Virus record (IMG/VR): IMGVR_UViG_3300043409_001877
Coordinates: 64,001 to 128,000 of that record
From: a virus
Length of the DNA: 64,000 nt
Direction: 5' to 3' (one strand)
In this document: positions 4,371-40,463 of the stretch, piece by piece
Layout: every line of letters starts with the position of its first letter
How positions within the stretch are numbered: the stretch's first letter is position 1
Notes under the pieces: generated by a model
Told to the model about the DNA's origin: nothing
Database searches by the model: none
Seen by the model: the letters and a program-made list of their open reading frames with translations, nothing else
Program-made: the position numbers and the translations under genes

Positions 4371-4680
4371 AATATTCTAATCTTTGTTTTAACTTTCTCT
4401 CATATTCCCTAATAGTTGTATCTAATGGTAATGGTATTCTTAAAACTTGACCATCTTTTATATTCCATTCTAACCCACCATATTCTGGGTTTGCCATTAA
4501 TATTAACCAACTATAATAAGGTGCGCCATAATATTCCTGACTAACTTTATCCAATCTGGTTTTATTAATATCATATCTAATAATTTGGTCGGAGCTTTTT
4601 TCGTCCAACTTAATAAATGGTGGTGAAATTGCACTCTCATCACTATTTAATCGTTTATATCTATTGTAGTAACCAGCCAT
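4360..4680 (-). CDS. LysM-domain baseplate wedge protein (gp53/tail X-like)
   Basis: RLDKVSQEYYG..YSWLILMANP...IKDGQVLRIP is a typical baseplate LysM pattern; located downstream of the tube-initiator-like gene. Confidence 0.8.
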   Translation of the reverse strand: MAGYYNRYKRLNSDESAISPPFIKLDEKSSDQIIRYDINKTRLDKVSQEYYGAPYYSWLILMANPEYGGLEWNIKDGQVLRIPLPLDTTIREYERKLKQRLEYYGE

Positions 4681-12365: not shown

Positions 12366-15300
12366 TTAAGCGTATATTGGTGTTATAGGATCGTGAGTTC
12401 CACTCCTGTAATTACCAAAACCACCGCCATCAGCTTGGGATATACCTTTTAATCTAGCACCAAACATATCTGAAGCTCCATTAAATTGATCATGTGTTAT
12501 AAATCTACCATCTGGTGTTTGTAATGTTATACTACCTTCATGTCTAACAACACTAGAACTACCAGAGCCACCACCAGAACCACTACCGCCACCCATACTA
12601 GACATGGCTTCTTGAAAAGCTTTTTGTTGAATAAATTGATCCATGTTATTTTTAAATGAAGTGGTATTTAAGTTACCACTTTTATCATAATCACCAATAT
12701 TAGACATAGCGTCTTTAGCGGCTTTTTCGTGAATGAATTGAACCATATCACCTTTACCAAAATTACCAGTATATAAGTTACCATTTGAGTTTATAGCAAT
12801 CTGACCATCATCAAAAGCCCCCATTTCTCTAGCAGCATCAGCAGCATCAATAGCAAGTGAGGTTGCGGTTCCAACTCCAGGTGCAACCAAATCTAATAAA
12901 CCAGCGGCACCAGAAGCAACTTGTAATCCAGCACCAGCCCAATCGCCTTCCATAGCATCTTTGACAGCAAAACCAAGACTAACTAATGTACCAATTATTG
13001 GTATATGTTTTAATATCGTTTTACCAGCAACACCCATGGCGGCTTTTTCGCCAGCCATACCAATTTTTAAACCAACTTTACCCATAGTAGCCCCACCATG
13101 TGTAATCATGGAACCGCCTAACTTAGATAAACCTTGACCCACAACTTTACCACCAACTTTTGTAGCTAAACCAGGAGCCATTTTAGCTAAATTAATAGCG
13201 CCTTTACCAGCCTTACCATATTTTAATAAACCTTCACCAGCTGTTTTTGTGCCATCATCTGGTGGTAACATTTGTTCTTGTATACCAGAACCCTTGTACA
13301 TTGCAGCTAAAGCACCTGTCTTGTCAGAGTCAATTGCCTCTTGTTTCATTCTCATAGCCGAAGCTCTCATTTTCTTACCACCAAGAGCATCTGGCAATGC
13401 ATGACTAATACCCTCCATTATGGTAGCTATACCAATTTTTAAAAATGGCATTATACCTTTTAATACCGCAACTAATACATCAGTAAATAACACTTTAAGT
13501 GTTTGCCCAACATTCTTTAAAAAACCATCTTTATCAGCCCAAATAGCTGATATTTTTTCAAATATACCTTTAGCCCAATCAATTACTTTTTTGAAACCCT
13601 GAGTTAAGCCTTCGCTACCCATGATATCTTCGCTTATGAATTTAGCTAAACTAGTACCAGCTTTTTCGACCATTGCTAAGAAACTATCAAAATCTTGACT
13701 ACCAAATAATTTTGTGAATATACTTGAAAACCCCATGATAAATCTATCGTAAATCATTTCCAATCTTTCCATCATATTTTTACGACCAATTGCCGCCTCT
13801 TCATTTTTCTTTCTTGAATCTAGTATGGCTTTTAAACCATTCTTATCAGTCATGTTTGCTAATAAAGTTTCAACACCAGCGGAGTTTCTGATTACATATT
13901 GACCTTTCTCATTTAAACTCACTAAATTAGCTAACGCTGGTCTATCATCTTCAGATATCTGCATAAGATTAAATCCAGATTTTTGTAGCATAGCCATTTT
14001 ATCAGCAATCTTTCTTTGTTCAATAGCTGTTTGTACTGCTTCTTCATAGTTTTGACCTAAAGTTTCAGACGCTATTTTTAATGATTTTCTTTCTTCTGGT
14101 GGAATAAAATAATTTCCTTTGGAGTCTTTTTTAACAATTTCTGAAACAGTCGCTGCAAATTTTTCAGCCAAAGCTGTTGGGTCATTCATTGATTCAAAAG
14201 CTAACTGCATAGGGTCGCCAAAACTAGCAGCAAATTTACCACCTAATGTTTGCATTCTAGCGGCAGCTTCAACAGCTTTTTCTGGGTCAAAAAACGCATC
14301 AGCAAATGCTTTAGTTGATGCTACGATATCAAATCTAATAGCTGTCGCTTTTGCGGCTAACTTTGTTAAATTTTCTAAACCTTTACCAAAACCAATACCC
14401 GTTAAACTTTTAACTAACCCATCGTATGTTTTTAATACTTTAGTTGTATTAACATTATATCTAGCAGCTAAACCTCTTGCTTTATCGGTTAGGTTAATTG
14501 TTTTTTCAAGTGAAATACCTATGTTTTCAAAACTAGCCGCCATTTCGGAAGCCGCATCAACACCAAGACCTGTGCCCAAACCTAATTCAACTATTTTTCC
14601 AATTTGGGCTTCATTGAACATCATGTTTTTACCAGTTATTTCACTAAATTGTTGCATAACAGTAACAACATCTTTCATGCTACCACCAAACTTCATGGCT
14701 GATAAAGTTAACCCAACCATGTTATTCATTAAAACTTTTGATTCAATAGCTGTTAACCCTATATCGGCAGATAAATTACCAACAGCGCTTTGCATTTCTA
14801 AGAATACATTGAAAGCTGCTTTAAGTGGAGCTAAAAATAATCCAATTATTGTTTTACCAATTGTAAGTAATCCACTAATTATTGAACCAATAACGGGAAC
14901 TGCGCCAACAATACTACCAATACCATCTATAATACCATCAGCCGCTGCACCAATTTGACCACCCTTGGCGCTAAGTTTACCAAGAACTGGTATTGTTTGG
15001 CGCATCTGTTTTAAACCAATTAAGTTTTTTTGATTTTTAATTTGGATTGCATTGTATTGTTTTTTTAATGATTTTGCTTCGGAATCTTTGCCGAGTTTTT
15101 GCGCTTCATGTATCTTTTTTTGTATTCTGATTAAATCTTTTTCAGTTGAGGCTATATCTTTTTTTGCTTTCCTAACTTTATCAGTTTGAGACATTATCTT
15201 AGCACCAGAACTAACCATCCTTTTCATTACGTTAGCACCCTTATAATCGGATTTTAACATATCTCTTTTGGTTCCAAAGATATCCATTTGTTGTTCAGCA

Positions 15301-15413
15301 ATTTCTTCCTGAATTTCTTTAAGACGTTCCATGGATATAACGTTGTTCCTAAGTGCCTCTTCCCAAACACCAGCACCAGTCATTAAGTTATTAAATAAAT
15401 CTCCTTGAGCCAT
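12366..15413 (-). CDS. Tape measure protein
   Basis: 1015-aa Ala/Gly/Lys-rich helical protein with hydrophobic stretches (IPIIGTLVSLGFAV..GDWAGAGL); downstream of tube and chaperone genes. Confidence 0.8.
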   Translation of the reverse strand: MAQGDLFNNLMTGAGVWEEALRNNVISMERLKEIQEEIAEQQMDIFGTKRDMLKSDYKGANVMKRMVSSGAKIMSQTDKVRKAKKDIASTEKDLIRIQKKIHEAQKLGKDSEAKSLKKQYNAIQIKNQKNLIGLKQMRQTIPVLGKLSAKGGQIGAAADGIIDGIGSIVGAVPVIGSIISGLLTIGKTIIGLFLAPLKAAFNVFLEMQSAVGNLSADIGLTAIESKVLMNNMVGLTLSAMKFGGSMKDVVTVMQQFSEITGKNMMFNEAQIGKIVELGLGTGLGVDAASEMAASFENIGISLEKTINLTDKARGLAARYNVNTTKVLKTYDGLVKSLTGIGFGKGLENLTKLAAKATAIRFDIVASTKAFADAFFDPEKAVEAAARMQTLGGKFAASFGDPMQLAFESMNDPTALAEKFAATVSEIVKKDSKGNYFIPPEERKSLKIASETLGQNYEEAVQTAIEQRKIADKMAMLQKSGFNLMQISEDDRPALANLVSLNEKGQYVIRNSAGVETLLANMTDKNGLKAILDSRKKNEEAAIGRKNMMERLEMIYDRFIMGFSSIFTKLFGSQDFDSFLAMVEKAGTSLAKFISEDIMGSEGLTQGFKKVIDWAKGIFEKISAIWADKDGFLKNVGQTLKVLFTDVLVAVLKGIMPFLKIGIATIMEGISHALPDALGGKKMRASAMRMKQEAIDSDKTGALAAMYKGSGIQEQMLPPDDGTKTAGEGLLKYGKAGKGAINLAKMAPGLATKVGGKVVGQGLSKLGGSMITHGGATMGKVGLKIGMAGEKAAMGVAGKTILKHIPIIGTLVSLGFAVKDAMEGDWAGAGLQVASGAAGLLDLVAPGVGTATSLAIDAADAAREMGAFDDGQIAINSNGNLYTGNFGKGDMVQFIHEKAAKDAMSNIGDYDKSGNLNTTSFKNNMDQFIQQKAFQEAMSSMGGGSGSGGGSGSSSVVRHEGSITLQTPDGRFITHDQFNGASDMFGARLKGISQADGGGFGNYRSGTHDPITPIYA

Positions 15414-18494: not shown

Positions 18495-21400
18495 TTATAA
18501 GTTATCGAAAGATACACTTGTAGGTGTTACTACGAATTCTAATTCAATAAATTCTAATGTAGGTGTTGGTTTAATATAAATTTTACCTCTTAAAGTATTT
18601 CTATCAGTATCTTCAACATCATTTACCAAAGAAACTCTAAAGTCAGTTAAACCTCTTTCTTTTCTGATATTATCCAAGATAGGATTTACCAATGATAAGA
18701 ATTGACTTCTAACTTGTGCATCATTTGGATCAAATAATAATCTATTAGCTACAGCTACAATTAATTTTCTTGCTTGTAACAATAATCTTCTGATATTTAA
18801 TCTATTCATTGCACTATCTTTAACTTGTAAGTTTCTATTACCCCAAATTACAGTTCCAACGTCAGAGAATGTAGCGATAGGGTTAATTCTACCTGGATAT
18901 AATATATCTCTAGACTCTTGATCTAATTGAATACGAGCTCTAATACAACTTACTAAACCTCTATTGTAACCTGCTGTTGCAAACCAAGGGTGAGCCACAT
19001 TATCAGTGAAAGCTAAATTCTTAACAACTTCAGCTGTTGGTGGAATAAACACGTTAGCGTTATTCTCAACATCAGAAATCTGAATCCAAGGATAGTATAT
19101 TGCTGTGTAATTCGAATCAATTTCAGTTGCTGTTAATTCGTCAATAATATCAGCTGGATAAAGCCAATCTTCACTATTAGAAGGATTAGAGTTACCAATT
19201 AATTTCATATCTGGTAATGTTGGTAAGTAAATTGAGTCCATTCTCTTCTCTTCAACAATCTCAATAGTATCTCTAACTAAATCAGTGTTATTGATTATGT
19301 CAATACCTGGAGTTGCTAAGATATTAATTGTAGTTTGTTCAGGATTTTCAAATGTCTTAACACCATAAATTGTAGCATAATAATCTGAAGTACCAAACGT
19401 ATCATTATATTCTACACTTGTAAATGTATCAAATCCGCTTTGAACAAATCCAGTTCTACCAATTTTATATTCGTCAGTATTTGTTCTTTGATCTCTATAA
19501 ACATCAAAACCATCAAAACCACCAGAGAATAAAGCTGTGAACTTTCTAGTCTTCATATCGTAATATGGGTGTGTTGGTGTTGAAGCGATTAATACAGGGT
19601 CAGTAAATGAACCATAACCAGTTGCAAATACAACATCACCACTAGCATCTACAATTGCACTAGCGTTAATGTCCATATGGAAACCTTTTGTTTTTGTATC
19701 CCAATCTAAACCATCATTATATGTGTTATCACCAGGAGTTGCTGATCTCTTACCCTTAAAATTTAATAAATCTTTATCAAAACCATATTCAGTATCTGTA
19801 AAACCTAAGAATACTTTTCTAATTTTATCACCAGTTGAATAAATTGGTAATGCAAATGGCGGGTTAACAATTAATTCACCAGGTGCGTAATATTTTGTTT
19901 TGTAAGGTAACTCTGGAACACCAATATAACTAGAATCAGTTGAACCAGTACCAGTAGCTCTAAAATCATAACCTTCAAAACCAGAAGCAACTCCATCAAT
20001 TGGAGCGTTTTCAGCCATTTCAGCAACAATATAAGAACTCTTTAAAGGATATTTGTTATCAATTGTACCAATTTTTCTACCAATGTAGCTATCAGATGTC
20101 TCATCCATAGAAACACCTAAGAATCTTTCTAAGTAAACTGGTGTTTTATCAGAATCACCAAATGATCTTAAATAAACATCAAATGTTTTTTTATCTAAAT
20201 CAACATTACCTATTGAAACTTTAATTTCTGTATTAGCGTTACTACCATCAGATATAGAAATAAATCTAAATAATCTTTGTGGTAAACCACCTCTTAATTC
20301 AGAAACAAAGAAAGGTGTTGCTGGTGATTGGAATTGGAATTTATAATGATCCCAATCGTTTACAGTTAATAATTCATAATGTAAACCTTTAATTTCACCA
20401 AAAGTCCAACCTTTTCTCAATATTGAATCGTAAACATCCTCAACAAATAAGTAAGTATCTTTATCAGAAGCTGTAGAACCTAATACGTTTTTAATGTAAT
20501 TCTTTTTATTCTTATCTAATGAAACAGAATAAACAAAATCAGTTCCACCAGTTGTTGTTCCTGTAATATCAAATGTAGCAAAAGGATTCGATCCCGCTGC
20601 TGTAAATTGATCGTAACCAACTGTTGTTGAATCAACGTGGTAACCTAATTGATTAACAATGTAAGTACCTCTACTTTTTAATGTAGAAACTAATTTTTTG
20701 TGATATTTTTCATTAGGTGTTGCTGTAAACTCATAAGTTCTTAAGGTAGTTGTACCTGTAATAGTGCTAACACCAGACGTACCAATGTCGTAGTTATATA
20801 AAGCAAAACCGTAACCAGTATAAGTGTCAGTTGTCTCATCATAACTAAATTCATTAATTAAAATGTTATCAGTTCTATCACTAGTCGGAATACCAAGTGG
20901 TAATTCATAACCATCAACAAATACAGGATTTGCAGGCCCAGAACCAGTTAAAGTTTGAGCGTTTCTATCAGTAGTTAAATCAGTAACCTCAGTTGAATCT
21001 AAAATACCCCAATAGAATGCGTTATTTTTATACCAATCCTTAGTAGTATAACTAAGTGTTGAAAAGAATCTGTAGTAAGCTGTGTCGAATTTAGTTGAAT
21101 CAATACCGCTTAAAGTAGCAATATGATCAATTAATTCAGTAGAAGTGCCCGCAAGTTGGAATGGATTTTGAACTCCAGCTGTAATCGTGGTATCAATTTC
21201 AAAATCAAATGTAACATCACTTGATGTAAACTCCAATGTAGTTTTGTCAACAGTACCGATTGTTCTGATAGCATAAGACATACCGCCTTCATAACCAGAA
21301 AGACCTAATACACGTGTCACGTATAATTGGTTAGATTGACCCAAGTAAGATTTTGCTATGTATGGTAATTCATACTTAACAATTTGAGTATTTTTAAATT

Positions 21401-21590
21401 TTTCTGGGCTTGTACCTCCAAAAGATAATTTAAATTCATCATAATTTCTGATGAACATTGGTTGGAATGCAGGCCCTTTCTTAGTTTCACCAACTAATCC
21501 TAGGGTTGTAACACCGATTGTTTCAGTTGTGAATGTTAAATCTTTTTCCGATGTATAAACACCTGGTGATGCATAAACTTTGTTTGCCAT
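18495..21590 (-). CDS. Tail sheath protein (T4 gp18-like)
   Basis: SPGVYTSEKD N-terminus, YYPW, PWFATAGYNRG, INPI..F...GTVIWGNRNL, RLNIRRLL, and the C-terminal KPT.TLEFIELEF. Confidence 0.95.
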   Translation of the reverse strand: MANKVYASPGVYTSEKDLTFTTETIGVTTLGLVGETKKGPAFQPMFIRNYDEFKLSFGGTSPEKFKNTQIVKYELPYIAKSYLGQSNQLYVTRVLGLSGYEGGMSYAIRTIGTVDKTTLEFTSSDVTFDFEIDTTITAGVQNPFQLAGTSTELIDHIATLSGIDSTKFDTAYYRFFSTLSYTTKDWYKNNAFYWGILDSTEVTDLTTDRNAQTLTGSGPANPVFVDGYELPLGIPTSDRTDNILINEFSYDETTDTYTGYGFALYNYDIGTSGVSTITGTTTLRTYEFTATPNEKYHKKLVSTLKSRGTYIVNQLGYHVDSTTVGYDQFTAAGSNPFATFDITGTTTGGTDFVYSVSLDKNKKNYIKNVLGSTASDKDTYLFVEDVYDSILRKGWTFGEIKGLHYELLTVNDWDHYKFQFQSPATPFFVSELRGGLPQRLFRFISISDGSNANTEIKVSIGNVDLDKKTFDVYLRSFGDSDKTPVYLERFLGVSMDETSDSYIGRKIGTIDNKYPLKSSYIVAEMAENAPIDGVASGFEGYDFRATGTGSTDSSYIGVPELPYKTKYYAPGELIVNPPFALPIYSTGDKIRKVFLGFTDTEYGFDKDLLNFKGKRSATPGDNTYNDGLDWDTKTKGFHMDINASAIVDASGDVVFATGYGSFTDPVLIASTPTHPYYDMKTRKFTALFSGGFDGFDVYRDQRTNTDEYKIGRTGFVQSGFDTFTSVEYNDTFGTSDYYATIYGVKTFENPEQTTINILATPGIDIINNTDLVRDTIEIVEEKRMDSIYLPTLPDMKLIGNSNPSNSEDWLYPADIIDELTATEIDSNYTAIYYPWIQISDVENNANVFIPPTAEVVKNLAFTDNVAHPWFATAGYNRGLVSCIRARIQLDQESRDILYPGRINPIATFSDVGTVIWGNRNLQVKDSAMNRLNIRRLLLQARKLIVAVANRLLFDPNDAQVRSQFLSLVNPILDNIRKERGLTDFRVSLVNDVEDTDRNTLRGKIYIKPTPTLEFIELEFVVTPTSVSFDNL

Positions 21591-28261: not shown

Positions 28262-29929
28262 ATGTCAATTACAGGTTCAACATTAGATTTAAGTAAACAA
28301 GCGGAATTAACAACATTAACAGACGGTCAGTTAGATGATATTGCTGATGGTAGTGCTATTATATACAGAAAAGAAAGCGAAAATGCTGATAATTTAATAT
28401 TTGGTTTACTTGAATCATACCCAGCCCTTGGTTTTGCTAGTAAAAACGGTACTATTACGGATTTACCATACCCTGGCACAGAAATTAAAGGCTTAATAGT
28501 TCCACCAATACCAAACACTTTTCCTGGTGATGACAAAGCCTATGCATTAGGTCTTGTGGAGGTTTTTGGTGAATTTAAATTAAAATGGGTTCTGGTTGAT
28601 ACTGATGGTAATTTTAATAGAGTTCCACCTTCATATTATTATACAACACGCAGTGCGGCTGTATGTTATAATTATGTTGCCACTTTAAACGATTTATTTC
28701 TTAATGGATCATTACTAGTACAAATTTACGGATGGGATGTTAACACACCCAAAAAGTATAGTATAGATGGTGGTAGTACATTTAGTGGTATTGTCACAGA
28801 ACAGTACGATGGTGGTAATTTATCTTATTTTACCATATCAAATTTAGGAACAACAAACCCAACAGGTCAAACAATTGATTTAGTTATTACCGATTCTGAT
28901 GATAATATATTATACCCAAACGAGTATTCGGCAACAGGAACAACTATTATCGCCTCACCCGTATATGAAGTTTTAAGTTCATTTGAAGGTTTAGATAATA
29001 ATGGTTCATTTGATGTTAATTTAATTAAACTCCAAGATAATTCATTAACAAGCGATGGTGTAATGGAAGTAGTAGTTACCGATATTCAGATTGGATGTCA
29101 ATATTATTATGAAATTTGGGATTACAACACTTCTACGCTTTTGTTTTATCGAGATTATTCAACCTCAAAAACCTATCAATTTGGTGTCTATACTGGGTCT
29201 ACAGAATTATTTGCCATTGTTTCTAAAAAAACACCAGGTATAATTACCATAGAAGGTATTGATAGTAATGGTGATACGTTTAAAGATATTGAACACTACT
29301 CATTACTGTATTCAAAAGGAGATCCAAATCCAGCTAATTTTGTTAATGTAACACCTGAAATGGGTTACACCGATATAAATTACACGCCAAGTGAAGCCAA
29401 TGGTGTACAAGAATTGTACATGCAAAGATATGGATATGATTGTATTTATAAAAAAGTAACAAACTTTACACAAGTTGATAATTCAGTTACAACAACTCAG
29501 ATGTTAATGTTAGATTATACTGGTGATTCCATCAATAGCTTTATATTTGATTCTCCAGTTATTGGAAATATAACTGTTAACACACCATTAAACCCAAATA
29601 CTTATTTTAACCCAGTTCAGATAAAAGCGGCTGCTTTTGGCGGTGGGTCTTCTATAATACTTTCGTACACTTTCTTAGGTTCCCCATCAACAGGTGATAC
29701 TAATGAAATATTATTTTATGATGCGGTTAGTGGTCAACCAATATTAACCGCTGGAGTCCAAACAGCAACTACAACACCTGGAGGTTATGTTACAATTGAT
29801 CTTAAATACCTAACTTATTGGACTAATAACTCAGGGCAGTCAATTATGATTAGATTCAAGTATACAAATGTTACCACATCTGGTGGTAGAACTTATTATT
29901 CCGATTTAATACACATAAAAAATGATTAA
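28262..29929 (+). CDS. Putative fibre/appendage structural protein
   Basis: Thr/Ser/Tyr/Gly-rich beta-type composition, YSIDGGSTF motif, in the neck operon. Confidence 0.6.
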   Translation: MSITGSTLDLSKQAELTTLTDGQLDDIADGSAIIYRKESENADNLIFGLLESYPALGFASKNGTITDLPYPGTEIKGLIVPPIPNTFPGDDKAYALGLVEVFGEFKLKWVLVDTDGNFNRVPPSYYYTTRSAAVCYNYVATLNDLFLNGSLLVQIYGWDVNTPKKYSIDGGSTFSGIVTEQYDGGNLSYFTISNLGTTNPTGQTIDLVITDSDDNILYPNEYSATGTTIIASPVYEVLSSFEGLDNNGSFDVNLIKLQDNSLTSDGVMEVVVTDIQIGCQYYYEIWDYNTSTLLFYRDYSTSKTYQFGVYTGSTELFAIVSKKTPGIITIEGIDSNGDTFKDIEHYSLLYSKGDPNPANFVNVTPEMGYTDINYTPSEANGVQELYMQRYGYDCIYKKVTNFTQVDNSVTTTQMLMLDYTGDSINSFIFDSPVIGNITVNTPLNPNTYFNPVQIKAAAFGGGSSIILSYTFLGSPSTGDTNEILFYDAVSGQPILTAGVQTATTTPGGYVTIDLKYLTYWTNNSGQSIMIRFKYTNVTTSGGRTYYSDLIHIKND

Positions 29930-31508
29930 GACCGAACTAGAATATGGCACATATTATGATTTTATCGTAACAAAAGACGATAGAGTATCAACTAGAGATT
30001 ATAATTCTTTAAAGTTATTTTATATTGATGTAACTGAAGATCTTTGTACTACAATTGGTCTTAAACAAAGTGAAGATGTTATATTAAAAAACATATCATT
30101 AAATGGTTATGATAATTATTTCATACATTTTGGTAATGGTACAATCGATCCAGAAATTGAATATGTTGTATCAAAAGACGATACGTTTTGTTTACATGAA
30201 GTATCTGGCTATACTAAAAATTTAAATTACGATATTATACCAAAACTAGGGTATAATCAACTTTCTGGTGGTTTTTATCAAGGGTTTTTTAAATTACATG
30301 AATACCCAGTTGAGTTTATGCCAAATAGAATGAGAAAAGGGTGGACAACAAATATGATGTTACATTTACCAACTCTAGGTTATGGCGTTAACGCTACTAG
30401 TGGTACAACATTAAATGATGTGTTTAATAATCCAGGCTTTATTTATTATTTGGGTACTAGGGCTGAAAACAAATATTCAGATTTAACACCTATTGAGGTT
30501 AATATATTAAAAAATGATTACTTATTTACGTTTGTTGATATTGATAATCAGTACACTAGAATTGGCACGTACCAATTAGATGGTATACCATATGAAGGTT
30601 ATTTTTACATTAAAGATGGTATACCTCACGCTGGTAGAAATGAATTAGATTTAACCATAACAGGTGATACTCAATTAACTTATTTCAATAAGTATAAAGA
30701 TGTTATCGATAATTCTTTTGGTGTTAGGATAACCCCAGATGGTAGAATTGGTTATAGAAAAATATACGCTACAGACCCTTGTTATACTGGCGCAACACAA
30801 GAAGTTAGCGGTATTACTACCAATTCATTTGTTGATTTTACTCAGGACTGCGATAACTTTACCATGGGTAAAATTATAACAAAATATTTTACAATTGAAG
30901 ATTCATATACTAAATGTTCGGTAATTTCAGACCAAGAACAAATATTAGTAAACGAAGGTAGTGACGTACCAGATGATTCAACTTACATATTATTTCAAGA
31001 TGGGAATATTTGGTCAGCTCAAGATGATAGTTTAATAATTTACTCTAGCAAACCAAAGGACAAGTATGTTTATGTTACAGTAACATTTGAAAGGGATTTT
31101 AGTTATGATACAAAGTGTGATTTAACTTATGGTGATTATAAAAACGGAACATTAACAATTAGTTTAAATGGTTTTACGGTTTATAGGAATCGTAATTTTA
31201 AAGAGGTAATACCGCATGAATTAGATACCGAAGCAAAATACCAAGAAGGTGTACCATTTAATATATCATTTGGTGGTGGCTCCCAAGGTTTATACGAGGC
31301 AATTTATTTAGACCCGAATAAAACAGTAGATGGTATTATTGATAAATTCTTCGCTGGTACATTTAATGGTGGTGTTAAATTTATTGAAATGTATTCTGTA
31401 CCTTTGTATATTACAGAAGTTAGAGATATTATACAAAATAACTTACAAAATTACAATTTGTACCGACCAAAAGGTGGTAGAAGAGTATTTATAAAAAACC
31501 AAATATAA
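29922..31508 (+). CDS. Structural protein with a possible LamG/ConA-like domain
   Basis: YVYVTVTF...LTISLNG...ISFGGG...F.GGVKFIEMYSVPL...EV resembles a LamG C-terminus. Confidence 0.55.
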   Translation: MIKTELEYGTYYDFIVTKDDRVSTRDYNSLKLFYIDVTEDLCTTIGLKQSEDVILKNISLNGYDNYFIHFGNGTIDPEIEYVVSKDDTFCLHEVSGYTKNLNYDIIPKLGYNQLSGGFYQGFFKLHEYPVEFMPNRMRKGWTTNMMLHLPTLGYGVNATSGTTLNDVFNNPGFIYYLGTRAENKYSDLTPIEVNILKNDYLFTFVDIDNQYTRIGTYQLDGIPYEGYFYIKDGIPHAGRNELDLTITGDTQLTYFNKYKDVIDNSFGVRITPDGRIGYRKIYATDPCYTGATQEVSGITTNSFVDFTQDCDNFTMGKIITKYFTIEDSYTKCSVISDQEQILVNEGSDVPDDSTYILFQDGNIWSAQDDSLIIYSSKPKDKYVYVTVTFERDFSYDTKCDLTYGDYKNGTLTISLNGFTVYRNRNFKEVIPHELDTEAKYQEGVPFNISFGGGSQGLYEAIYLDPNKTVDGIIDKFFAGTFNGGVKFIEMYSVPLYITEVRDIIQNNLQNYNLYRPKGGRRVFIKNQI

Positions 31509-31912
31509 TGATTTTTACAATTAGACAAAATTCAAAATTACCATCATTACGAATGAAATTATATCGTGATGGTAGAAATGATTATAATCGTTTCGAGGAT
31601 TTATTAGAAAACTCAGTTATAACCTTTGCGATGAAAGATGAAAAAACTGGCATTTATAAGGTTGCTAATAAAGAAGCTAAAATTATTTTAAAAGATCCTT
31701 GTGATATTAATAGTAAAAAAGAGTATTATATTGTATATGATTTTACAATTGACGATACCAATAAACCTGGTATATATTTAGGTCAATTCAAGGTAACTTT
31801 TTTAAATGATTGTATGCAAACAAACGGAGATTTAATAGTCCCTATTTCTGAGGAATTGTACATCCATGTTATTGATAGTTTTATCAAAAGCGACATAAAA
31901 TACATCAATTAA
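31508..31912 (+). CDS. BppU-N-like structural protein
   Basis: F.IRQN..LP.L...YDF...DT..PG.Y.GQFKV.F...L..P pattern. Confidence 0.55.
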   Translation: MIFTIRQNSKLPSLRMKLYRDGRNDYNRFEDLLENSVITFAMKDEKTGIYKVANKEAKIILKDPCDINSKKEYYIVYDFTIDDTNKPGIYLGQFKVTFLNDCMQTNGDLIVPISEELYIHVIDSFIKSDIKYIN

Positions 31913-32008: not shown

Positions 32009-35000
32009 ATGAGTGAATATAAAATCCCTATTGAAGAAGTTGAGAAGTTTTTATTAGGTCATGATGATGAAAAGTATATCGTAAATATAGAATACGATAA
32101 CAAGACCAACTTAATTTATAAATTTAAACAGTTACCTGATGGTACAAAAACCACAGAAAAGGAACCACTTAAGGCGTTTCTATGGATGAAGAATTTAAAC
32201 ACTCTTAAAGAAAGGTTTAATTTCTATGACAACAATACCTTAAAAATTAAGTTAGCTAGAGAACAATATGGTATTGAAATCAAATCATTGGATCATGGTG
32301 ACCATGAAAGATTGGTAGATGGTTACAAATATTTACTAACTTGCGACCAGGGATATGATAGAATGTTAGAATTCTTTAGAAAGGGTGGTTTTTACAGGGG
32401 GATATACGATAAAACAAACGATATTAATACAAATTTTATAATTTTACCACCCGTTGAACAGTACTTGGTATCAACTGGTAAGAGATTATATAAAGGTTAC
32501 GAAGATTATAACGATATTGAAAAGTTTGTATTTGACTTAGAGACAACTGGTTTAGACCCTGAAACATCAAGGATATTCTTAATTGGTTGTAAGACAAATA
32601 AAGATTTTGAGGTATTATTTGACTGCGAAACTGAGGGTGAAAATGCTGATGCCACTGAAGTTGCAGCTATTGCTAAATTCTTCGCTGCAATAGATTATAT
32701 AAAACCCGCTATCATTGGTGGTTATAACAGCGCTAACTTTGACTGGAATTTTATTTTTAAACGTTGTGAAAAGTTAGGTGTGGATATTGAATCTCTGGCT
32801 AAAACATTAAAAGAAGATTCTAAAATTACAAACAAAGACCAGATAATTAAATTAGGTGGGGATGTTGAAAAGTTCACTCAAACAAATATGTTTGGTTACT
32901 CTGTTATTGATATTATACATGCAACACGTAAAGCCCAAGCCATTGATTCTAGTATGAAATCAGCGGCTTTAAAATATGTTTGTAAATATAATAAAATTGC
33001 AAAAAAGAATCGTGTTTATATTAAAGGAGATAAGATTGGTTCATATTGGAAAACCAATAAAGATTATTATTTTAATAATATAACTGGGTTATATTGCGAA
33101 AAAAAACCAAGTATTATTACTATGGATGTTATTACTAGGGATTATGTTAAAAACAATCCCGATATGGTCTTTATTTTTGGTGATAATGATGAAAGAGAGG
33201 GTATGGGTGGTCAAGCTAATGAAATGCGTGGTGAGCGCAATTCTATTGGAATACCAACCAAGAAAAAACCAAGTACAACAGATGATTCGTATTATACTGA
33301 TTCCGAATTTGAATTAAATAAAAAGAAAATTAATTATTCAGTTAATTTAATTTTAACTCAAATTAATAATGGTAAAACAATTGTATTACCAAGTAATGGT
33401 ATTGGCACTGGGTTAGCACAATTAAAAGAAAAGGCACCCAAAACATTTTCTTTCTTAGAGGCTACCATAAAAGCTATGTATGATTATGTTAATAAATTTG
33501 AAGTTGTTAATGGTGAGTACATTGTTAAACGGTATTTAATGGATGATTTATGGGAAACCGCTGAAATTGATAATGTATACAACCAATCATCTTTCATGTT
33601 AGCCAAGATGATTCCAACAACATACCAAAGGGTATCAACTATGGGTACGGCTGGTTTATGGAAAATGATTATGATTACATGGTCATATGAAAATAATTTA
33701 GCACTACCAACGCAAGACGATAAACGTGACTTTGTTGGTGGTTTATCTAGATTATTAAAAGTTGGGTTTTCAAAGAATCTAAGGAAGATGGACTTTAATT
33801 CACTATACCCAGCTATTCAATTAGCTCATGATATATTCCCAAGTGTTGATATTACTGGTGTAATGAAGTCATTATTAAAATACTTTCACTCCGAACGTTT
33901 TAAAGCTAAAGATTTAGCTAAACAATATAAAAAACAAGGTAATCATCAACTTGAATCACTATATAAACGTAAACAATTACCTTTAAAGATATTCATTAAC
34001 TCAATGTTTGGTGCATTGGGTGCCCCAAATGCTTTCCCTTGGGCTGAAATAAACATTAGTGAACAGATTACATGTACCGCAAGACAATATCTTAGGTTGA
34101 TGGTTAAATTCTTTATTAAGAAAGGGTATCAACCAACTGTATTAGATACGGATGGGGTTAACTTTATGGCACCTGATAACGGTGAGAGTGAATTTGTTTA
34201 CATAGGTAAGGGTAATAATGATGAGGTTGAAGCTGGTAAAGAATATCGTGGTGTCTATGCGGTTGTAGCAGAATTCAACGATCTTTATATGAAAGGTGAA
34301 ATGGGATTGGGTTTAGATGGTATGTGGCCCGCAACTATTAATTTAGCCAGAAAAAATTATGCGTTATTGGAAGATGATGGTAGCATTAGTTTAACTGGTA
34401 ATACTATTAAATCTAAAAAAATGCCAGTTTACATTGAAGAATTTTTAGATAAAGGTTTGGTTCTTTTATTAAATGATAAAGGTTACGAGTTTGTTCAATA
34501 TTATTATAAGTACGTTGATTTAATTCATAACAAAAAAATACCATTGGCTAAAATAGCCACAAAGGCTAGGGTTAAAAAAACAATATCTCAATATACTAAT
34601 AGAGGTATGAATAAGAACAACAAACCATTACCAAAACAAGCCCATATGGAATTGGCTATTAAACACAACTTACAAGTCAATCTAGGTGATACATTGTATT
34701 ATGTTAATGTTGGCACTAAAAAGTCTCATGGTGACGTTAAAGAAGATAAAAACGGTAAGATATATGGTGAATTAATTGAAGCTTCTATTATTGAATCAGC
34801 ACCAGATACATTAGGGGAGTACAATATTGAAAAATATTTATCAATGTTTAACTCAAGGATTAAAGGTTTACTGGTTCTTTTTGACCTTGAGGTTAGAAAT
34901 AAAATATTAATAAACAAACCCGAAGATAAAAAAAGTTGGATGATGTCAGAACTAGAATTAGTTAATAATCAACCAAGTAAAGAGGGTGATCAAGATACTT

Positions 35001-35131
35001 TAGATGAATTATTTACACCATCTGACATGGAAATTGAATTTTGGGATAAATTAGAGTACCAACCAGATTTTTGGTTCCAAGAAAACATACTATTTACATT
35101 ACCTGGATTAGGAAAAGAAGAGTTAGTTTAA
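32009..35131 (+). CDS. polB: Family B DNA polymerase with an inserted macrodomain-like module
   Basis: ExoI FDLETTG, ExoII GYNSANFD, ExoIII YLMDD; polymerase motifs DFNSLYP, K...NSMFG, DTDG. Confidence 0.93.
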   Translation: MSEYKIPIEEVEKFLLGHDDEKYIVNIEYDNKTNLIYKFKQLPDGTKTTEKEPLKAFLWMKNLNTLKERFNFYDNNTLKIKLAREQYGIEIKSLDHGDHERLVDGYKYLLTCDQGYDRMLEFFRKGGFYRGIYDKTNDINTNFIILPPVEQYLVSTGKRLYKGYEDYNDIEKFVFDLETTGLDPETSRIFLIGCKTNKDFEVLFDCETEGENADATEVAAIAKFFAAIDYIKPAIIGGYNSANFDWNFIFKRCEKLGVDIESLAKTLKEDSKITNKDQIIKLGGDVEKFTQTNMFGYSVIDIIHATRKAQAIDSSMKSAALKYVCKYNKIAKKNRVYIKGDKIGSYWKTNKDYYFNNITGLYCEKKPSIITMDVITRDYVKNNPDMVFIFGDNDEREGMGGQANEMRGERNSIGIPTKKKPSTTDDSYYTDSEFELNKKKINYSVNLILTQINNGKTIVLPSNGIGTGLAQLKEKAPKTFSFLEATIKAMYDYVNKFEVVNGEYIVKRYLMDDLWETAEIDNVYNQSSFMLAKMIPTTYQRVSTMGTAGLWKMIMITWSYENNLALPTQDDKRDFVGGLSRLLKVGFSKNLRKMDFNSLYPAIQLAHDIFPSVDITGVMKSLLKYFHSERFKAKDLAKQYKKQGNHQLESLYKRKQLPLKIFINSMFGALGAPNAFPWAEINISEQITCTARQYLRLMVKFFIKKGYQPTVLDTDGVNFMAPDNGESEFVYIGKGNNDEVEAGKEYRGVYAVVAEFNDLYMKGEMGLGLDGMWPATINLARKNYALLEDDGSISLTGNTIKSKKMPVYIEEFLDKGLVLLLNDKGYEFVQYYYKYVDLIHNKKIPLAKIATKARVKKTISQYTNRGMNKNNKPLPKQAHMELAIKHNLQVNLGDTLYYVNVGTKKSHGDVKEDKNGKIYGELIEASIIESAPDTLGEYNIEKYLSMFNSRIKGLLVLFDLEVRNKILINKPEDKKSWMMSELELVNNQPSKEGDQDTLDELFTPSDMEIEFWDKLEYQPDFWFQENILFTLPGLGKEELV

Positions 35132-35175: not shown

Positions 35176-35706
35176 ATGGATAAGGATATTAATGAATTTG
35201 TAAGCGCTGATGGTGGTCTAATTAGTAGTAAAGTACCAAATGTTGACCCAAAAACAACAGCTGCTACAACTACCGATAAGAGTATGCGAATGAGGGCTCA
35301 ACCCTTTATGTACACAGTTTATAGACGTTTTTTTAGTGAAGGTGAATTACCTCACACCAAAAAAGCTGATGAAATGAAGAATGACCCAAAAGGGTTCCAT
35401 GATTATTTGAAATCAATTAAAGAAGGTGATGCGTTTGAGAGTTATTTCCAAAAAGATGATTCACCTGAGGCTAAATTAAAAGAAATTAGTAGATCTAAGG
35501 CTTATGATATGATGGAAACATTATTATCTAACAGAACTAACACTATTGATGTTATAAGAAAAACCCCAGTAACTATTGATGAGATTAAAAATAAAGAAAT
35601 TTTATTGGTTGATAAATTAACTAAAATAGCTGAAACCATCAAAGAATTAATGTCTGAAGATGAAAAGAAAGTTATTTTATCATACTTTGGTGAAAAAATA
35701 AGATAA
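35176..35706 (+). CDS. Hypothetical protein (possible head/internal protein)
   Basis: ORF preceded by GATATTTAT at 35150-58. Confidence 0.65.
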   Translation: MDKDINEFVSADGGLISSKVPNVDPKTTAATTTDKSMRMRAQPFMYTVYRRFFSEGELPHTKKADEMKNDPKGFHDYLKSIKEGDAFESYFQKDDSPEAKLKEISRSKAYDMMETLLSNRTNTIDVIRKTPVTIDEIKNKEILLVDKLTKIAETIKELMSEDEKKVILSYFGEKIR

Positions 35707-36173
35707 TGTCAAACTCTAAATTAATAGGTAAACAATTCCCCGTACCAGATAAGGTATTAAAGGAACTTGGTATAAATCTAAAGAAATTTTCTGATAAAAG
35801 AAATTCTAAAGGTTTTAACCGAGCTATCTTTATTTTAGAAAGACGTGCATGTACTTATGAACAATTAAAAAGAATTAAAAATTATTTTGATTGTGTTAAT
35901 GATGAAAATTACAATGATATTGAATATTTATTAAATGGTGGTGAAGTTATGAAAAAATGGGTTGATTTTACGTTAGACCAAGCTAGAAAAAGTGTTCACG
36001 GAACTAAAAGTGCTAGAAAAAACGCTGGAATGGAAAATCAATTTAGATCTGACTCTGAAGAAACTGTAAATGCGGTTACACCAGAATTAAAAAGTACTCC
36101 ATCATTTATGTCAACATCAGACTTAATGGAAGAATTAAATATAATAAAAGAAATAACAAAAAAATTAAACTAA
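35706..36173 (+). CDS. Hypothetical protein
   Basis: Translationally coupled ORF; TYEQLKRIKNYF...LNGG...W motif. Confidence 0.65.
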   Translation: MSNSKLIGKQFPVPDKVLKELGINLKKFSDKRNSKGFNRAIFILERRACTYEQLKRIKNYFDCVNDENYNDIEYLLNGGEVMKKWVDFTLDQARKSVHGTKSARKNAGMENQFRSDSEETVNAVTPELKSTPSFMSTSDLMEELNIIKEITKKLN

Positions 36174-36174
36174 A

Positions 36175-36441
36175 ATGGCAGACGCAGTTAGAATCCCAGC
36201 ATCAGAACAACTAAGAACAGTTGCAGTTGCGGAAAGAGAAGGTAAACTAATACCTATTAACGAATATAAACCAACATCTTTTGAATATGGGGCTTCAAAT
36301 CCAAACGCATTAAGTGATGGTGATGAAAAAGGTAAAGGTGAATTAGCTACTATTGGTAGTAGAACCGATATTATAACAAGAAACAGTTTATTTGGTGTGA
36401 ATCAGTATACTCAAACAGCACAATATACAACACCAGAATAA
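36175..36441 (+). CDS. Hypothetical small structural protein
   Basis: Coupled ORF; NPNALSDGDEKGKG motif. Confidence 0.65.
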   Translation: MADAVRIPASEQLRTVAVAEREGKLIPINEYKPTSFEYGASNPNALSDGDEKGKGELATIGSRTDIITRNSLFGVNQYTQTAQYTTPE

Positions 36442-36459
36442 CTTTACATTCATTTTTAT

Positions 36460-37017
36460 ATGACTATTATTGAAAATGCAGGTGATGATAAACTGGAAAT
36501 GCTAAGATATGCAATCAAAAACAAATATGCGATTACATTCTGGTATAAAGGTGTTAAAGTCAGCGATCCAAATAACAAAAAATACACGAAACAAAATTTT
36601 AGACGTGTAGAACCTTTTGCGTTAGGTAAAAGTGCCGCAACTGATAAATGGATGCTAAGAGCTTACCAATTTCAAGGTGTTACCAACACCAAGAACGATG
36701 CTTGGAAAACTTTTCTTGTAGATGAAATAAAAGACGGTAGTGTTCAAATAGTTTATGATAACACTGGGACTCAATTAAAAACAATTGATAGTCCAAGATC
36801 AAACTATAGAACGGATGGTTCAGATAAAAAAATGGCTGTAGGTAGTATTAAAGATTTTTTAAAGACCAGCGAACCAGCTGGTAATAAAGATCCTAAATAC
36901 GCTAACATAAAGTATAAGGGTGATAAACCTGAAATTGAAAATAAACCAGAAGAAGAGATTCAGTTAACTGAATCTTCTGGGTTTTTAAAATGGGTATTAA
37001 AATTAAATAATGGATAA
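36460..37017 (+). CDS. Stand-alone WYL-domain protein
   Basis: AIKNKYAITFWY...RRVEPFALG...WMLRAYQ...WKTFLVDEI matches the WYL layout. Confidence 0.7.
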   Translation: MTIIENAGDDKLEMLRYAIKNKYAITFWYKGVKVSDPNNKKYTKQNFRRVEPFALGKSAATDKWMLRAYQFQGVTNTKNDAWKTFLVDEIKDGSVQIVYDNTGTQLKTIDSPRSNYRTDGSDKKMAVGSIKDFLKTSEPAGNKDPKYANIKYKGDKPEIENKPEEEIQLTESSGFLKWVLKLNNG

Positions 37018-37573
37018 TAAAGATAAAGCTAGTATAATAGCGCAAGGTATTGCAAATGCTAGAAAAGTAATGGAAAAAGTTGAGGGTGGTTTAGTTAAAT
37101 CGTCTAATAACACAGTTAGAGGTTTAAGTGAATCAGATGTTGATCGTATGTTAGACAATGACGCTGTAAATTATATGACAGAAAGAAAAGTCCAACAACC
37201 AACTGCGGCTTCAAACATGAGAAATTTACATAAATCAAAAATGCCTGCGGATATCTTGAAATCGTTTCAAGAAAACCCAATCATTGATCCAACAGCCCCA
37301 GTGGGTATGGAGAGTATAATGCAAGAAATAACAAAAAAAGCAGCTCCTATGGAAGAAGTTGTTAAAAAAGTTATAACAGAAACCCAACAAGCACCTCAAT
37401 TAGATGCTAAATTAATTGAATTTATAATTAAAAAAACAGTAGAGGAAACCTTGGAACAAGTTAGTAAAAGAACAGCTATCGATGAAACGATTCAAATAAA
37501 AATTGGTGATAAAACATTTGGTGGTAAATTAACTGTGTTAAAAGAAAATAAAATAAACGAAAATAAAAAGTAA
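37010..37573 (+). CDS. Hypothetical protein
   Basis: Coupled ORF; SKMPADILKSFQENPI and IKIGDKTFGG motifs. Confidence 0.65.
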   Translation: MDNKDKASIIAQGIANARKVMEKVEGGLVKSSNNTVRGLSESDVDRMLDNDAVNYMTERKVQQPTAASNMRNLHKSKMPADILKSFQENPIIDPTAPVGMESIMQEITKKAAPMEEVVKKVITETQQAPQLDAKLIEFIIKKTVEETLEQVSKRTAIDETIQIKIGDKTFGGKLTVLKENKINENKK

Positions 37574-38075: not shown

Positions 38076-39302
38076 ATGTCAAAAATTAAAATATTAGTAG
38101 CACCAGGTGATAGAGCTGGTTCAGGTAAATTTAGATGTGTAGATCCCCATGTCAATTTACAAAATAACTTTTCTAGCGATTATTTCGTTGATATTAATCA
38201 CAATATTGATTTCAGTGACGTTAATTACCTTAAAAATTATGACGTTGTGTTTATTCATAGAATACCACAACATAGAAATAAAGAAGCCGTTGATATTATT
38301 AACAGAATTAAAAAGTTAGGTATTAAGGTTATTGTTGATACAGATGATCATTGGAATTTAGACCCATCTCATGGCTTGTATGCTATGGCTAAAAGAGATA
38401 ATATACCTGGAACTATATTAGATTGTATTAAATTAGCTGATTTGGTTACCGTACCAACAGAAATTATTGCAAAAGAAGTTTCAAAATTCAATAAAAATGT
38501 TGTAGTTTTGCCAAACGCTATTGATCCAAATGAAGAACAATTTAAACCAAAACCGATTAAGTCAGATTTGATTAGATTTGGGTGGTTAGGTGGTTCATCA
38601 CATGTTAAAGATATTGAATTACTACGTGGAATTGGCTCTACTCAAAAATCTATCAGTGAAAAATCTCAGATAGTTTTATGTGGGTTTGATACTAGAGGAA
38701 CCGTACAATCGATCAATCCAAATACTAATCAGGTAGAACAAAGACCAATGAATCCACAAGAAACAACTTGGTTTATGTATGAATTATTTTTAACAAATAA
38801 CTATAAAAATTTGGAGCATGATAAAGATTATTTAACTTATTTGGTTAGCTTTGCCGATGACCCATCTTATGATTCAACAAATAAACCATATAGAAGAATT
38901 TGGACTAAAGCTATTAATCAATACGCTAATGGTTATAATAGTTTTGATGTGGCTTTGGCACCATTAAATGATAGTGATTTTAATAAGTACAAATCTCAAT
39001 TAAAAGTAATTGAGGCTGGGTTTCATAAGAAGGCTTTAATTGCTCAAAACTATGGCCCTTACACCATTGATTTGATTAACGCTATTAATAAAGGTGGTGA
39101 ATCTAACCCAGATGGTAATTGTTTATTAGTTGATACAGCTAAGAACCATAAACAATGGACTAAGTACGCTAAAAAATTAGCTGATAGCCCACAAATGGTT
39201 ATTGATTTAGGTGAAAAATTATATGAAACCGTTAAAGATAAATATGATTTAAATAATGTAACAAAATTAAGAAGTGAAATTTATAAAAATTTAGTAAAAT
39301 GA
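38076..39302 (+). CDS. Glycosyltransferase (GT-B / GT4-like)
   Basis: DTDDHW, VLPNAID, GWLGGSSH..D, DVALAPL...FN.YKSQLKVIEAG. Confidence 0.85.
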   Translation: MSKIKILVAPGDRAGSGKFRCVDPHVNLQNNFSSDYFVDINHNIDFSDVNYLKNYDVVFIHRIPQHRNKEAVDIINRIKKLGIKVIVDTDDHWNLDPSHGLYAMAKRDNIPGTILDCIKLADLVTVPTEIIAKEVSKFNKNVVVLPNAIDPNEEQFKPKPIKSDLIRFGWLGGSSHVKDIELLRGIGSTQKSISEKSQIVLCGFDTRGTVQSINPNTNQVEQRPMNPQETTWFMYELFLTNNYKNLEHDKDYLTYLVSFADDPSYDSTNKPYRRIWTKAINQYANGYNSFDVALAPLNDSDFNKYKSQLKVIEAGFHKKALIAQNYGPYTIDLINAINKGGESNPDGNCLLVDTAKNHKQWTKYAKKLADSPQMVIDLGEKLYETVKDKYDLNNVTKLRSEIYKNLVK

Positions 39303-39883
39303 TAACAATAGAAACAATCCAAGAAAACAAAAAAAAGTTTTTAACCACGGTAAAAGGTTATAACATTTGTACCAATGAGTTAATTGATAAATTATCTGAT
39401 ATGGGTCTTTTTGACGCACCAGCATCTACAATGCTTAGTTTACACAATGCATTCCCAGGTGGTTTAATTGATCACTCACTTCGTGTTACTGGTTACGCTC
39501 TTAAATTAAATGAGTTGTTACCAGACCATCTTAAACAAACTAAAGAGAGCGTTATTCGTGTTAGTTTATTGCACTCAATTGGTAAAGTTGGTTTATACAC
39601 ACCATGTAAAAGTGATTGGCATATTAAGAACCAAGGTAAGATGTATGAATTTAACGAATCGTTAACATCTATGTCTATTGGTGAGAGGAGTTTATTTTAC
39701 ATTATGTCAAATAACAACGGTAATATGATTACGGATATTGAATATCAAGCCATTACTAATTACGACAAAACAGCTTCAGATAAAATGTCTGAATGGCACA
39801 CATCTTCATTAGGTGAAATTTTAAAAATGGCTATTAAATTAGCTATAATGGAAGAAAAAACAAAATATACGACAAATGGATAA
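39299..39883 (+). CDS. HD-domain-like hydrolase (HD motif reads HS)
   Basis: APAS...HNAFPGGLIDHSLRV...LLHSIGK. Confidence 0.7.
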   Translation: MITIETIQENKKKFLTTVKGYNICTNELIDKLSDMGLFDAPASTMLSLHNAFPGGLIDHSLRVTGYALKLNELLPDHLKQTKESVIRVSLLHSIGKVGLYTPCKSDWHIKNQGKMYEFNESLTSMSIGERSLFYIMSNNNGNMITDIEYQAITNYDKTASDKMSEWHTSSLGEILKMAIKLAIMEEKTKYTTNG

Positions 39884-40463
39884 TTTAGATAAACTAAACA
39901 ATTTAAATGTTTACGATTACTTAACCGATGAAGAAAAAATTCAAATGGCTGAAGTATTAGATCAAATTGGTGGTATGAATGATTGGGTTTTTGACTCCAC
40001 AGATAATTCAATGAAACTTAAAATATCTATGGTTAATAATTCAAATAACCCTGATCCAATGTATCAAAAAATTGGTGATAGTGGTTTTGATTTTATGGCT
40101 AGTCTACCAGAAGGTGCTATTATTATAGCAGAACCTCTTAAAAGAGTGTTGATTCCAACTGGGCTACATTTTCAAATACCTATTGGGTTCGAATTACAAG
40201 TTAGACCTAGAAGTGGTTTAGCGTTAAAAAATGGTATCACAGTTTTAAATACACCTGGTACTGTTGATTCTGGGTATCGTGGTGAAATTAAAGTTATATT
40301 ATATAATACAGGTGATGAATCTTTTACAATAAAAAATGGTGATAGAATTGCGCAAGGGGTTATAGCACCAGTTCAAAACAAAAAAACAACCATATTTACA
40401 CGTGTTGAATCATTAGATGATTCTGATAGAGGTGTTGATGGGTTTGGATCAACTGGAGTATGA
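39876..40463 (+). CDS. dut: Trimeric dUTPase
   Basis: SGFD, IPTG, RPRSGLA, GTVDSGYRGEI, GDRIAQ, RGVDGFGSTG. Confidence 0.95.
   Translation: MDNLDKLNNLNVYDYLTDEEKIQMAEVLDQIGGMNDWVFDSTDNSMKLKISMVNNSNNPDPMYQKIGDSGFDFMASLPEGAIIIAEPLKRVLIPTGLHFQIPIGFELQVRPRSGLALKNGITVLNTPGTVDSGYRGEIKVILYNTGDESFTIKNGDRIAQGVIAPVQNKKTTIFTRVESLDDSDRGVDGFGSTGV

Follow-up and report, generated by a model that had tools for sequence, protein, structure and literature searches.

We describe a phage family B DNA polymerase (PolB) that carries an accessory domain of the family DUF7831 inside its 3′–5′ exonuclease domain, at a site that sister polymerases leave unoccupied. The gene lies in a 64,000-nucleotide stretch of DNA (hereafter the window) that comprises bases 64001–128000 of the 141-kilobase (kb) IMG/VR record IMGVR_UViG_3300043409_001877, for which CheckV estimates a completeness of 47%; the source phage is therefore roughly 300 kb in size with a low guanine–cytosine (GC) content (about 30%). 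We tentatively propose, with a confidence somewhat short of even, that the insert is a replisome-tethered, minimal macro-like eraser of ADP-ribosyl (or similar) adducts on nucleic acids. DUF7831 is already catalogued in Pfam and PHROGs, where its function is unassigned. New from the present analysis are a history that fits a single gain followed by repeated decay, a contrast in the ratio of non-synonymous to synonymous substitution rates (dN/dS), a wider catalogue of DUF7831 architectures that includes an insertion into an XRN-type exonuclease, and the finding that the polymerase copy is the only DUF7831 in this record and in six related ones.

An accessory DUF7831 domain inside a phage polymerase

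The protein, P0001, is a family B polymerase with a 3′–5′ exonuclease: its exonuclease and polymerase motifs are all intact and invariant in our alignment A2, and both PF03104 and PF00136 are matched (Table 1). Its nearest solved structures are archaeal PolBs, against which query residues 214–260 pair with chain residues 184–230 and query residues 505 onward pair with chain residues 307 onward; P0001 therefore has about 245 residues where the archaeal enzymes have about 75. The distance from ExoII to ExoIII amounts to 269 residues in P0001 compared with 145–155 in relatives without the insert. An earlier note on this DNA, made from the letters alone, had reported an insert of ~125 amino acids (aa) between these two motifs at positions 33100–33490. 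The peptide that it quoted is present letter for letter, and alignment with related polymerases places the segment at 33107–33475, in agreement with the position first reported.

The inserted segment is a full-length member of DUF7831, matching positions 3–117 of the 118-position Pfam model with 148 bits when the whole protein is searched and 152.8 bits when the excised piece is used (cut-off 27); no NCBIfam model matched the domain. An alignment of 15 DUF7831 members, stand-alone and inserted, has 11 invariant columns and nine near-invariant ones (at least 90%). Three of the invariant residues (D392, N393 and G401) fall in the first conserved block, and the conserved polar set of the insert comprises D392, N393, Q402, R407, N411, T417, K418, K419 and D431.

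Table 1 Features of the polymerase gene and its insert (window coordinates)
Feature	Position	Strand	Evidence
Family B DNA polymerase gene, 1040 aa (P0001), host of the insert	32009..35131	+	PF00136, PF03104, PF13482; phrog_262 (DNA polymerase)
ExoI motif FDLETTG, aa 175–181	32531..32551	+	D176 and E178 invariant in alignment A2
ExoII motif GYNSANFDWNF, aa 238–248	32720..32752	+	Aligns to the ExoII region of archaeal PolBs
Inserted segment relative to insert-less sister polymerases, aa ~367–489 (~123 aa, in-frame)	33107..33475	+	Alignment A2; ExoII–ExoIII spacing
Pfam DUF7831 (PF25176) match, aa 371–485; also phrog_2072	33119..33463	+	E = 1.3e-43; phrog_2072 E = 3e-15
First conserved block FGDN...GMGGQA, aa 390–403	33176..33217	+	End of strand 2 and GxGG loop into helix 1
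IPTKKKP, aa 415–421	33251..33271	+	End of strand 3; T417, K418, K419 and P421 near-invariant
Second Gly-rich loop NGIGTGLA, aa 463–470	33395..33418	+	After strand 4
ExoIII motif YLMDD, aa 509–513	33533..33547	+	Residues from 505 on align with archaeal PolB from residue 307 on
Polymerase motifs A (DFNSLYPA), B (KIFINSMFG) and C (DTDG)	33791..34156	+	Invariant columns in A2

An intein was considered and rejected, in line with the earlier note: P0001 has no Hint or intein match in Pfam, and the boundaries of the insert have neither a Cys or Ser at the start nor an HN-C/S/T end. The relative P0033 (1392 aa) serves as a control for detection, as a true intein with a LAGLIDADG endonuclease (PF14528, PF14890) is recognized elsewhere in its sequence; the same protein also holds a partly decayed DUF7831 insert (60 bits).

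Relatives of the polymerase were drawn from a search of 5.8 billion proteins. A large clade, 49–98% identical to P0001, carries DUF7831 at the same site, and nearly all of its enzymes with an intact domain have an ExoII–ExoIII distance of 267–272 residues, while the sister polymerases that lack the insert are about 900–950 aa long and about 50% identical. In a tree of 64 polymerases, from which the insert columns had been removed beforehand, a single branch separates the insert-less enzymes from the others, consistent with one gain. On the same tree the conserved motifs were lost at least three independent times (in P0097 and P0098, in P0095 and P0099, and in P0073 together with P0078, P0081 and P0082) while the polymerase stayed intact, and a loop-remodelled form arose at least twice, with GDN replaced by S/D-E/D-N, GGQA by G(Q/E)QS and GTGLA by GTDSS or GNGES. 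The suggestion in the earlier note that the insert would prove optional once related polymerases were aligned is thereby confirmed. The phages compared, two with an intact insert and one with a decayed one, share their gene order around the polymerase. Several relatives (P0097, P0098, P0101, P0116 and P0130) have other lineage-specific insertions, among them about 60–80 extra residues in the N-terminal domain of P0097 and P0098 and a Lys- and Glu-rich stretch, about 150 residues long, close to the C terminus of P0101-type polymerases.

Selection on the intact insert is as strong as on the enzyme around it. Compared with a 94%-identical relative (dS about 0.6, unsaturated), dN/dS is 0.046 in the insert and 0.040 in the rest of the gene; compared with a decayed lineage, dN reaches 1.15 in the insert and 0.28 elsewhere in the gene, such that the insert of the decayed lineage evolves almost neutrally. 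The GC content is 0.309 in the insert and in the remainder of the gene alike, and the acquisition is therefore old. Taken together, the pattern of selection and loss indicates that the insert has a selected function of its own, one that the polymerase can do without. It is thus accessory and not structural, and its decay agrees with a biochemical function that can be dispensed with, of the sort involved in arms races.

Predicted fold and comparison with macrodomains

An AlphaFold2 model of the insert, built from a 52-sequence alignment, is confident (predicted local distance difference test score 93.5, predicted template modelling score 0.86) and comprises four strands and five helices. Its GxGG loop follows strand 2, IPTKK stands at the end of strand 3 and the GIGTG loop follows strand 4; in both the alignment and the model, G398-M-G400-G401 comes after a strand at aa 386–393, and G464-I-G466-T-G468 comes after a strand at aa 457–461 and leads into a helix. 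The Macro core is a three-layer α/β/α fold around a six-stranded sheet with strand order 1-5-6-2-4-3, and a GxG motif after the second core strand is among its well-conserved features according to Iyer et al. (PMC9503650). In the model, the two Gly-rich loops of the insert would thus occupy the sites of the loops that line the macrodomain ADP-ribose cleft, an agreement of position only.

In both VIA-align lists the first places go to macrodomains of the TARG1/DarG/Poa1p type, and those of alphaviruses and coronaviruses are also among the structural matches. DarG sequences for comparison came from one phylum, in which 19 of 301 genomes had DarT genes and the DarG genes downstream of these were taken, and T4 Tk.4 (AdfM) was added to the set. 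By eye, three blocks of DarG and the insert follow in the same order: VNTVN..GVMGRGIA and FGDN..GMGGQA, NFPTKRHW and GIPTKKKP, and IPPLGCGLGG and LPSNGIGTGLA. The last two pairs were recovered independently by hhalign, which sets FPTK(R) against IPTKK and PPLGCGLGG against NGIGTGLA over 56–63 columns, short of significance. The DarG macrodomain and human TARG1 are ADP-ribosyl hydrolases that act on thymidine-linked adducts of DNA and glutamate-linked adducts of proteins, and in both the catalytic residue is a conserved Lys in the PTK motif, where the strand that precedes the long helix ends. In its predicted fold, DUF7831 shares with them the succession of a strand, a GxG(G) loop, a helix, a strand ending in PTK, a long helix, a strand, a Gly-rich loop and a helix. 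It is shorter (~115 aa compared with ~150), and relative to the TARG1 layout the hairpin that follows helix 1 and the final strand appear to be missing; it also has a conserved GDN where DarG has NxxN, and is without the DarT-binding C-terminal domain of DarG.

Several results weigh against this assignment and against the eraser function that we build on it. The model has four core strands where the macro core has six (PMC9503650). The comparison that the earlier note had recommended, AlphaFold and Foldseek against macro and DarG folds, returned nothing from the PDB at E ≤ 0.001, with the best TM-score, 0.46, going to an alphavirus macrodomain, and the structural scores do not set macrodomains apart from other α/β/α folds. 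Similarity at the level of sequence or profile is likewise insignificant: Pfam Macro (PF01661) is matched by 1 of 52 DUF7831 members, at E = 0.16; a comparison by hhalign with 13 DarG macrodomains yields P 0.08–0.11, whether T4 Tk.4 is included or not; and hidden Markov model-to-sequence searches between DUF7831 and Macro stay at noise level in both directions. DUF7831 is not mentioned in the literature that we searched. Finally, Iyer et al. argue that phage sets of Macro, NADAR and SLOG domains are for the most part directed at diffusible derivatives of ADP-ribose rather than at adducts on DNA (PMC9503650).

Other searches returned little of use. PADLOC found no link to Macro, DarG or AdfM in the 52 members, and a profile search of the PDB with DUF7831 gave as best matches, by chance, NOC2 and the phosphate loop of triosephosphate isomerase. 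A feature search of the ESM Atlas retrieved clusters of the same family and one viral cluster of which 29% of members have Macro (score 0.78–0.79), a weak lead. A SLOG-type fold, considered for the GGxG-like loops, found no support: 0 of 52 members match SLOG in Pfam and no LOG, DprA or YpsA chain appears in the top 50 structural rows. The parallel drawn in the earlier note is thus supported by the placement of the two Gly-rich loops and by the type of macrodomain that leads the VIA-align lists, and is not established by the Foldseek search of the PDB, Pfam Macro or hhalign. On the model, a macro-like fold is the leading candidate, while membership of DUF7831 in the macro superfamily is not established by sequence; the insert is best filed as DUF7831, macro-like, rather than as a proven macrodomain.

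Partner domains and proposed function

DUF7831 is a large family (2,116 clusters at 50% identity) whose members NCBI names ‘A1S_2505 family phage non-structural protein’, as are the ESM Atlas neighbours of the insert. Stand-alone proteins of ~130 aa occur in phages of Caulobacter, Rhizobium, Sinorhizobium, Agrobacterium, Microcystis and others, and the same motifs are found in giant viruses (Tupanvirus, Hyperionvirus and Yasminevirus) and crAss-like phages. DUF7831 genes also lie on two contigs of prokaryotic metagenome-assembled genomes, L002 (Methanobacterium, archaeal) and L003 (Pyrinomonadales, acidobacterial). Many other copies are modules of proteins of about 750 to 6,800 aa. Among the multidomain proteins scanned for partners, all of 2,417 aa or less, Pfam identified NADAR, YpsA and circularly permuted YpsA (SLOG), DUF4326, DUF488-N3a, AlkB-type dioxygenase, MuF and Zeta/PNK-like kinase domains, and further a RecD/PIF1-type helicase, a UvrB interaction domain and sigma-70 regions 3 and 4. 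The polymerase insert has the same motifs as the stand-alone proteins, yet is internal to a polymerase, neither a gene of its own nor a module of a giant protein. Locus L017 (genome G051) was excluded from all analyses.

SLOG, Macro, NADAR and DUF4326 form a set that is characteristically fused in DNA viruses according to Iyer et al. (PMC9503650); through its partnership with SLOG, NADAR and DUF4326, DUF7831 therefore keeps the same company as Macro. The same authors regard MuF-linked multidomain proteins as injected effectors (PMC9503650), and by analogy the architecture of the large DUF7831 proteins would be that of injected counter-defence proteins. The MuF, Zeta-like kinase, helicase, NADAR, SLOG and AlkB partners also recall the polyvalent proteins of Iyer et al. 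2017 (cited in PMC9503650), whereas the window protein is an ordinary replicative polymerase with one extra domain and no polyvalent effector.

A counterpart to the polymerase is P0267 (L034:1647–3728), an XRN-type 5′–3′ exonuclease with DUF7831 between XRN_N and XRN_M, a further case, independent of the first, in which the domain sits inside a nuclease. Together with the fusions to RecD/PIF1-type helicases and a sigma factor, it points to nucleic-acid-bound substrates. The XRN gene lies on a densely coded 7-kb contig and adjoins a dual-specificity phosphatase gene. An apparent fusion of DUF7831 to GyrB (P0013) was discarded as unreliable, since it rests on a 1.3-kb contig of 1.3× coverage and a weak PF00204 match.

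In the phage itself, the PolB copy is the sole DUF7831 of the record, as it is in six related insert-bearing records, all of them fragments. Searches for a canonical Macro domain came back empty in this record and in 16 related ones, as did those for a stand-alone DUF7831 in 10 related IMG/VR fragments without the insert; the related records are 20–75% complete, so that absence from the genomes is not shown. This record also contains no DarT, and no NADAR above the cut-off; a sub-threshold NADAR-like match outside the window (G000:C1:8668–8976; 13 bits, E = 0.006), interrupted by a TAA stop, is probably noise.

We propose that, in a lineage of large, low-GC phages, the replicative family B polymerase acquired DUF7831 in a single event and that the domain settled in a surface loop of the 3′–5′ exonuclease domain, just before the ExoIII helix. 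There it would form a small, autonomously folding module, predicted as a three-layer α/β/α sandwich with two Gly-rich loops, that may be a minimal and highly diverged relative, or a functional analogue, of TARG1/DarG-type macrodomains. The two loops would bind the ADP-ribose moiety, and the domain would free nucleic-acid bases, by hydrolysis, of an ADP-ribosyl adduct or another bulky ribosyl group like it; where the polymerase stalls at the fork, a block of the DarT type could then be cleared from the template in cis. A polymer-bound substrate is favoured because DUF7831 has been grafted repeatedly onto processive nucleic-acid enzymes. Our confidence stays tentative because the fold and sequence statistics are weak.

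The literature agrees with the statements of the earlier note that DarTG stalls phage replication and that changes in the polymerase can give escape. DarTG stops phages from copying their DNA (PMC11481870), and polymerase mutations are reported to allow some of them to evade it (LeRoux et al. 2022, as cited in PMC11481870). AdfM (T4 Tk.4 and PhiKZ gp104), a canonical stand-alone macrodomain, removes DarT2 marks from DNA and protects T4 and PhiKZ against DarTG2 (PMC13716836, PMC13309987), and AdfN (T4 30.3), a factor against DarTG1/DarT1, has a NADAR fold (PMC11825919, PMC13716836). DUF7831 resembles these factors in being fused to NADAR in other proteins and in occurring in a phage lineage in which no canonical Macro was found. 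AdfM, however, is a free protein and a clear DarG homologue (HHpred 99.7%; PMC13716836), whereas DUF7831 is built into a polymerase and is not detectably homologous by sequence; and AdfM and AdfN are erasers of DarT-made DNA ADP-ribosylation, whereas for DUF7831 a link to DarTG is a proposal. A further likeness is offered by the replicases of (+)RNA viruses, in which Macro or NADAR domains are joined to the replication machinery (alphavirus nsP3 and coronavirus Mac1; PMC9503650), as here, where the ligand is a predicted one. Those macrodomains are separate domains of a polyprotein, with ADP-ribosyl adducts placed on proteins by host enzymes as their proposed targets (PMC9503650), whereas the present insert lies within the exonuclease domain of a phage DNA polymerase.

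The argument of Iyer et al. leads to another reading, in which DUF7831 would process or sense small diffusible nucleotide derivatives (ADP-ribose-1″-phosphate, O-acetyl-ADP-ribose, immune signals of the cyclic ADP-ribose type or breakdown products of nicotinamide adenine dinucleotide (NAD)) and the polymerase would serve as an abundant early carrier or as a means of placement in the replication compartment. We consider this unlikely, though it draws on real features of the family: the partner set of SLOG, NADAR, DUF4326 and DUF488 is read by Iyer et al. as a battery against low-molecular-weight ADP-ribose derivatives (PMC9503650), and most DUF7831 members are stand-alone proteins of about 130 aa among small hypothetical genes, as in three phage records (phiM9, Seuss and Mwe-JY26), where the neighbours are nearly all hypothetical and offer no functional clue. 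An enzyme with a soluble ligand would nevertheless have no obvious need to recur within or beside PolB, XRN, RecD/PIF1 helicases and a sigma factor, and insertion into a loop of an exonuclease domain is a costly route to mere co-expression.

A substrate on nucleic acid need not be an ADP-ribosyl one. DUF7831 might act on another lesion or end (a ribosyl, glycosyl or phospho adduct, a 2′-phosphate or an NAD-type cap), its resemblance to macrodomains then reflecting a shared Rossmann-like sandwich; such an account would keep the principle of a processive enzyme that carries its own block-remover. The failure of structural scores to single out macrodomains speaks for it, and the fusions to AlkB-type dioxygenase and PNK/Zeta-like kinase, together with the insertion into an XRN exoribonuclease, would suit general repair or end-processing. 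We nonetheless judge it quite unlikely, given that the insert has no P-loop or other motif of an alternative fold, that NADAR, SLOG and DUF4326, which recur as partners, have links to the chemistry of ADP-ribose (PMC9503650, PMC11825919) and that the motif order matches that of DarG and TARG1. A non-catalytic role, as a docking site for a replisome or host protein or as an allosteric sensor that tunes proofreading against synthesis, is improbable: some macrodomains are indeed readers and not enzymes (PMC9503650), and several lineages retain an insert of similar length after the loss of every conserved motif, such that the scaffold may be tolerated or useful, but the decayed inserts evolve almost neutrally, and the invariant polar residues and Gly loops, which the PolB insert has in common with stand-alone proteins of phages and giant viruses, fit a shared site for a small ligand or for catalysis better than a protein interface specific to one lineage.

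Returning to the eraser proposal, a phage factor that removes DarT marks is a known kind of function; what would be new is the divergent, minimal domain and its integration into a replicase. A polymerase with an internal ADP-ribose-processing domain is not described in the literature that we searched. If the insert does strip ADP-ribose, or an adduct like it, from DNA, the enzyme would be, to our knowledge, the first replicative DNA polymerase with a built-in eraser of a defence-made DNA modification, and a single polypeptide would unite counter-defence with replication. The orphan family, whose more than 2,100 clusters come from phages, giant viruses, giant polyvalent proteins and some microbial genomes, would then gain a function, and the known macro-like enzymes would widen to a minimal form of ~115 residues. 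The bolder version, in which DUF7831 as a whole is an unrecognized minimal clade of macro-like ADP-ribosyl-nucleic-acid hydrolases, repeatedly grafted onto PolB, XRN and RecD/PIF1 enzymes, and the polymerase clears its own template in cis, is possible and on balance doubtful. Were it true, such a self-clearing replicase would embody a new counter-defence principle, functionally parallel to the template-lesion read-ahead of archaeal polymerases, and the recurrent decay of the insert would track hosts without DarT-type systems. Phages that otherwise agree in gene order, and in which the insert is intact, loop-remodelled, decayed or absent, provide a natural control series for experiments. Whatever the ligand, a processive enzyme carrying its own block-remover is a directly testable pattern.

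Genomic neighbourhood of the polymerase

The genes around the polymerase are mostly without a match in PHROGs, as judged from a scan of ten flanking genes. Seven of them (28262–31912 and 35176–37573, plus strand) had no PHROG match at all, and these seven are syntenic in the related phages compared, whether the insert is intact or decayed. The region further 3′ of the polymerase (38076–40463, plus strand) encodes a glycosyltransferase (phrog_7162), a metal-dependent phosphohydrolase of the HD type and a dUTPase/dCTP-deaminase-like protein, which may serve nucleotide pools or DNA modification as one module.

Four very large open reading frames precede the polymerase block, all on the minus strand, at 4680–12332 (2550 aa), 12366–15413 (1015 aa), 18495–21590 (1031 aa) and 1536–4370 (944 aa). 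Gene orientation flips near 23.3 kb, the large open reading frames being on the minus strand in 1–23284 and nearly all on the plus strand in 23363–64000. The minimum of the cumulative GC skew, at about 22–24 kb, coincides with this flip, which could mark a point of divergent transcription or a replication-related switch.

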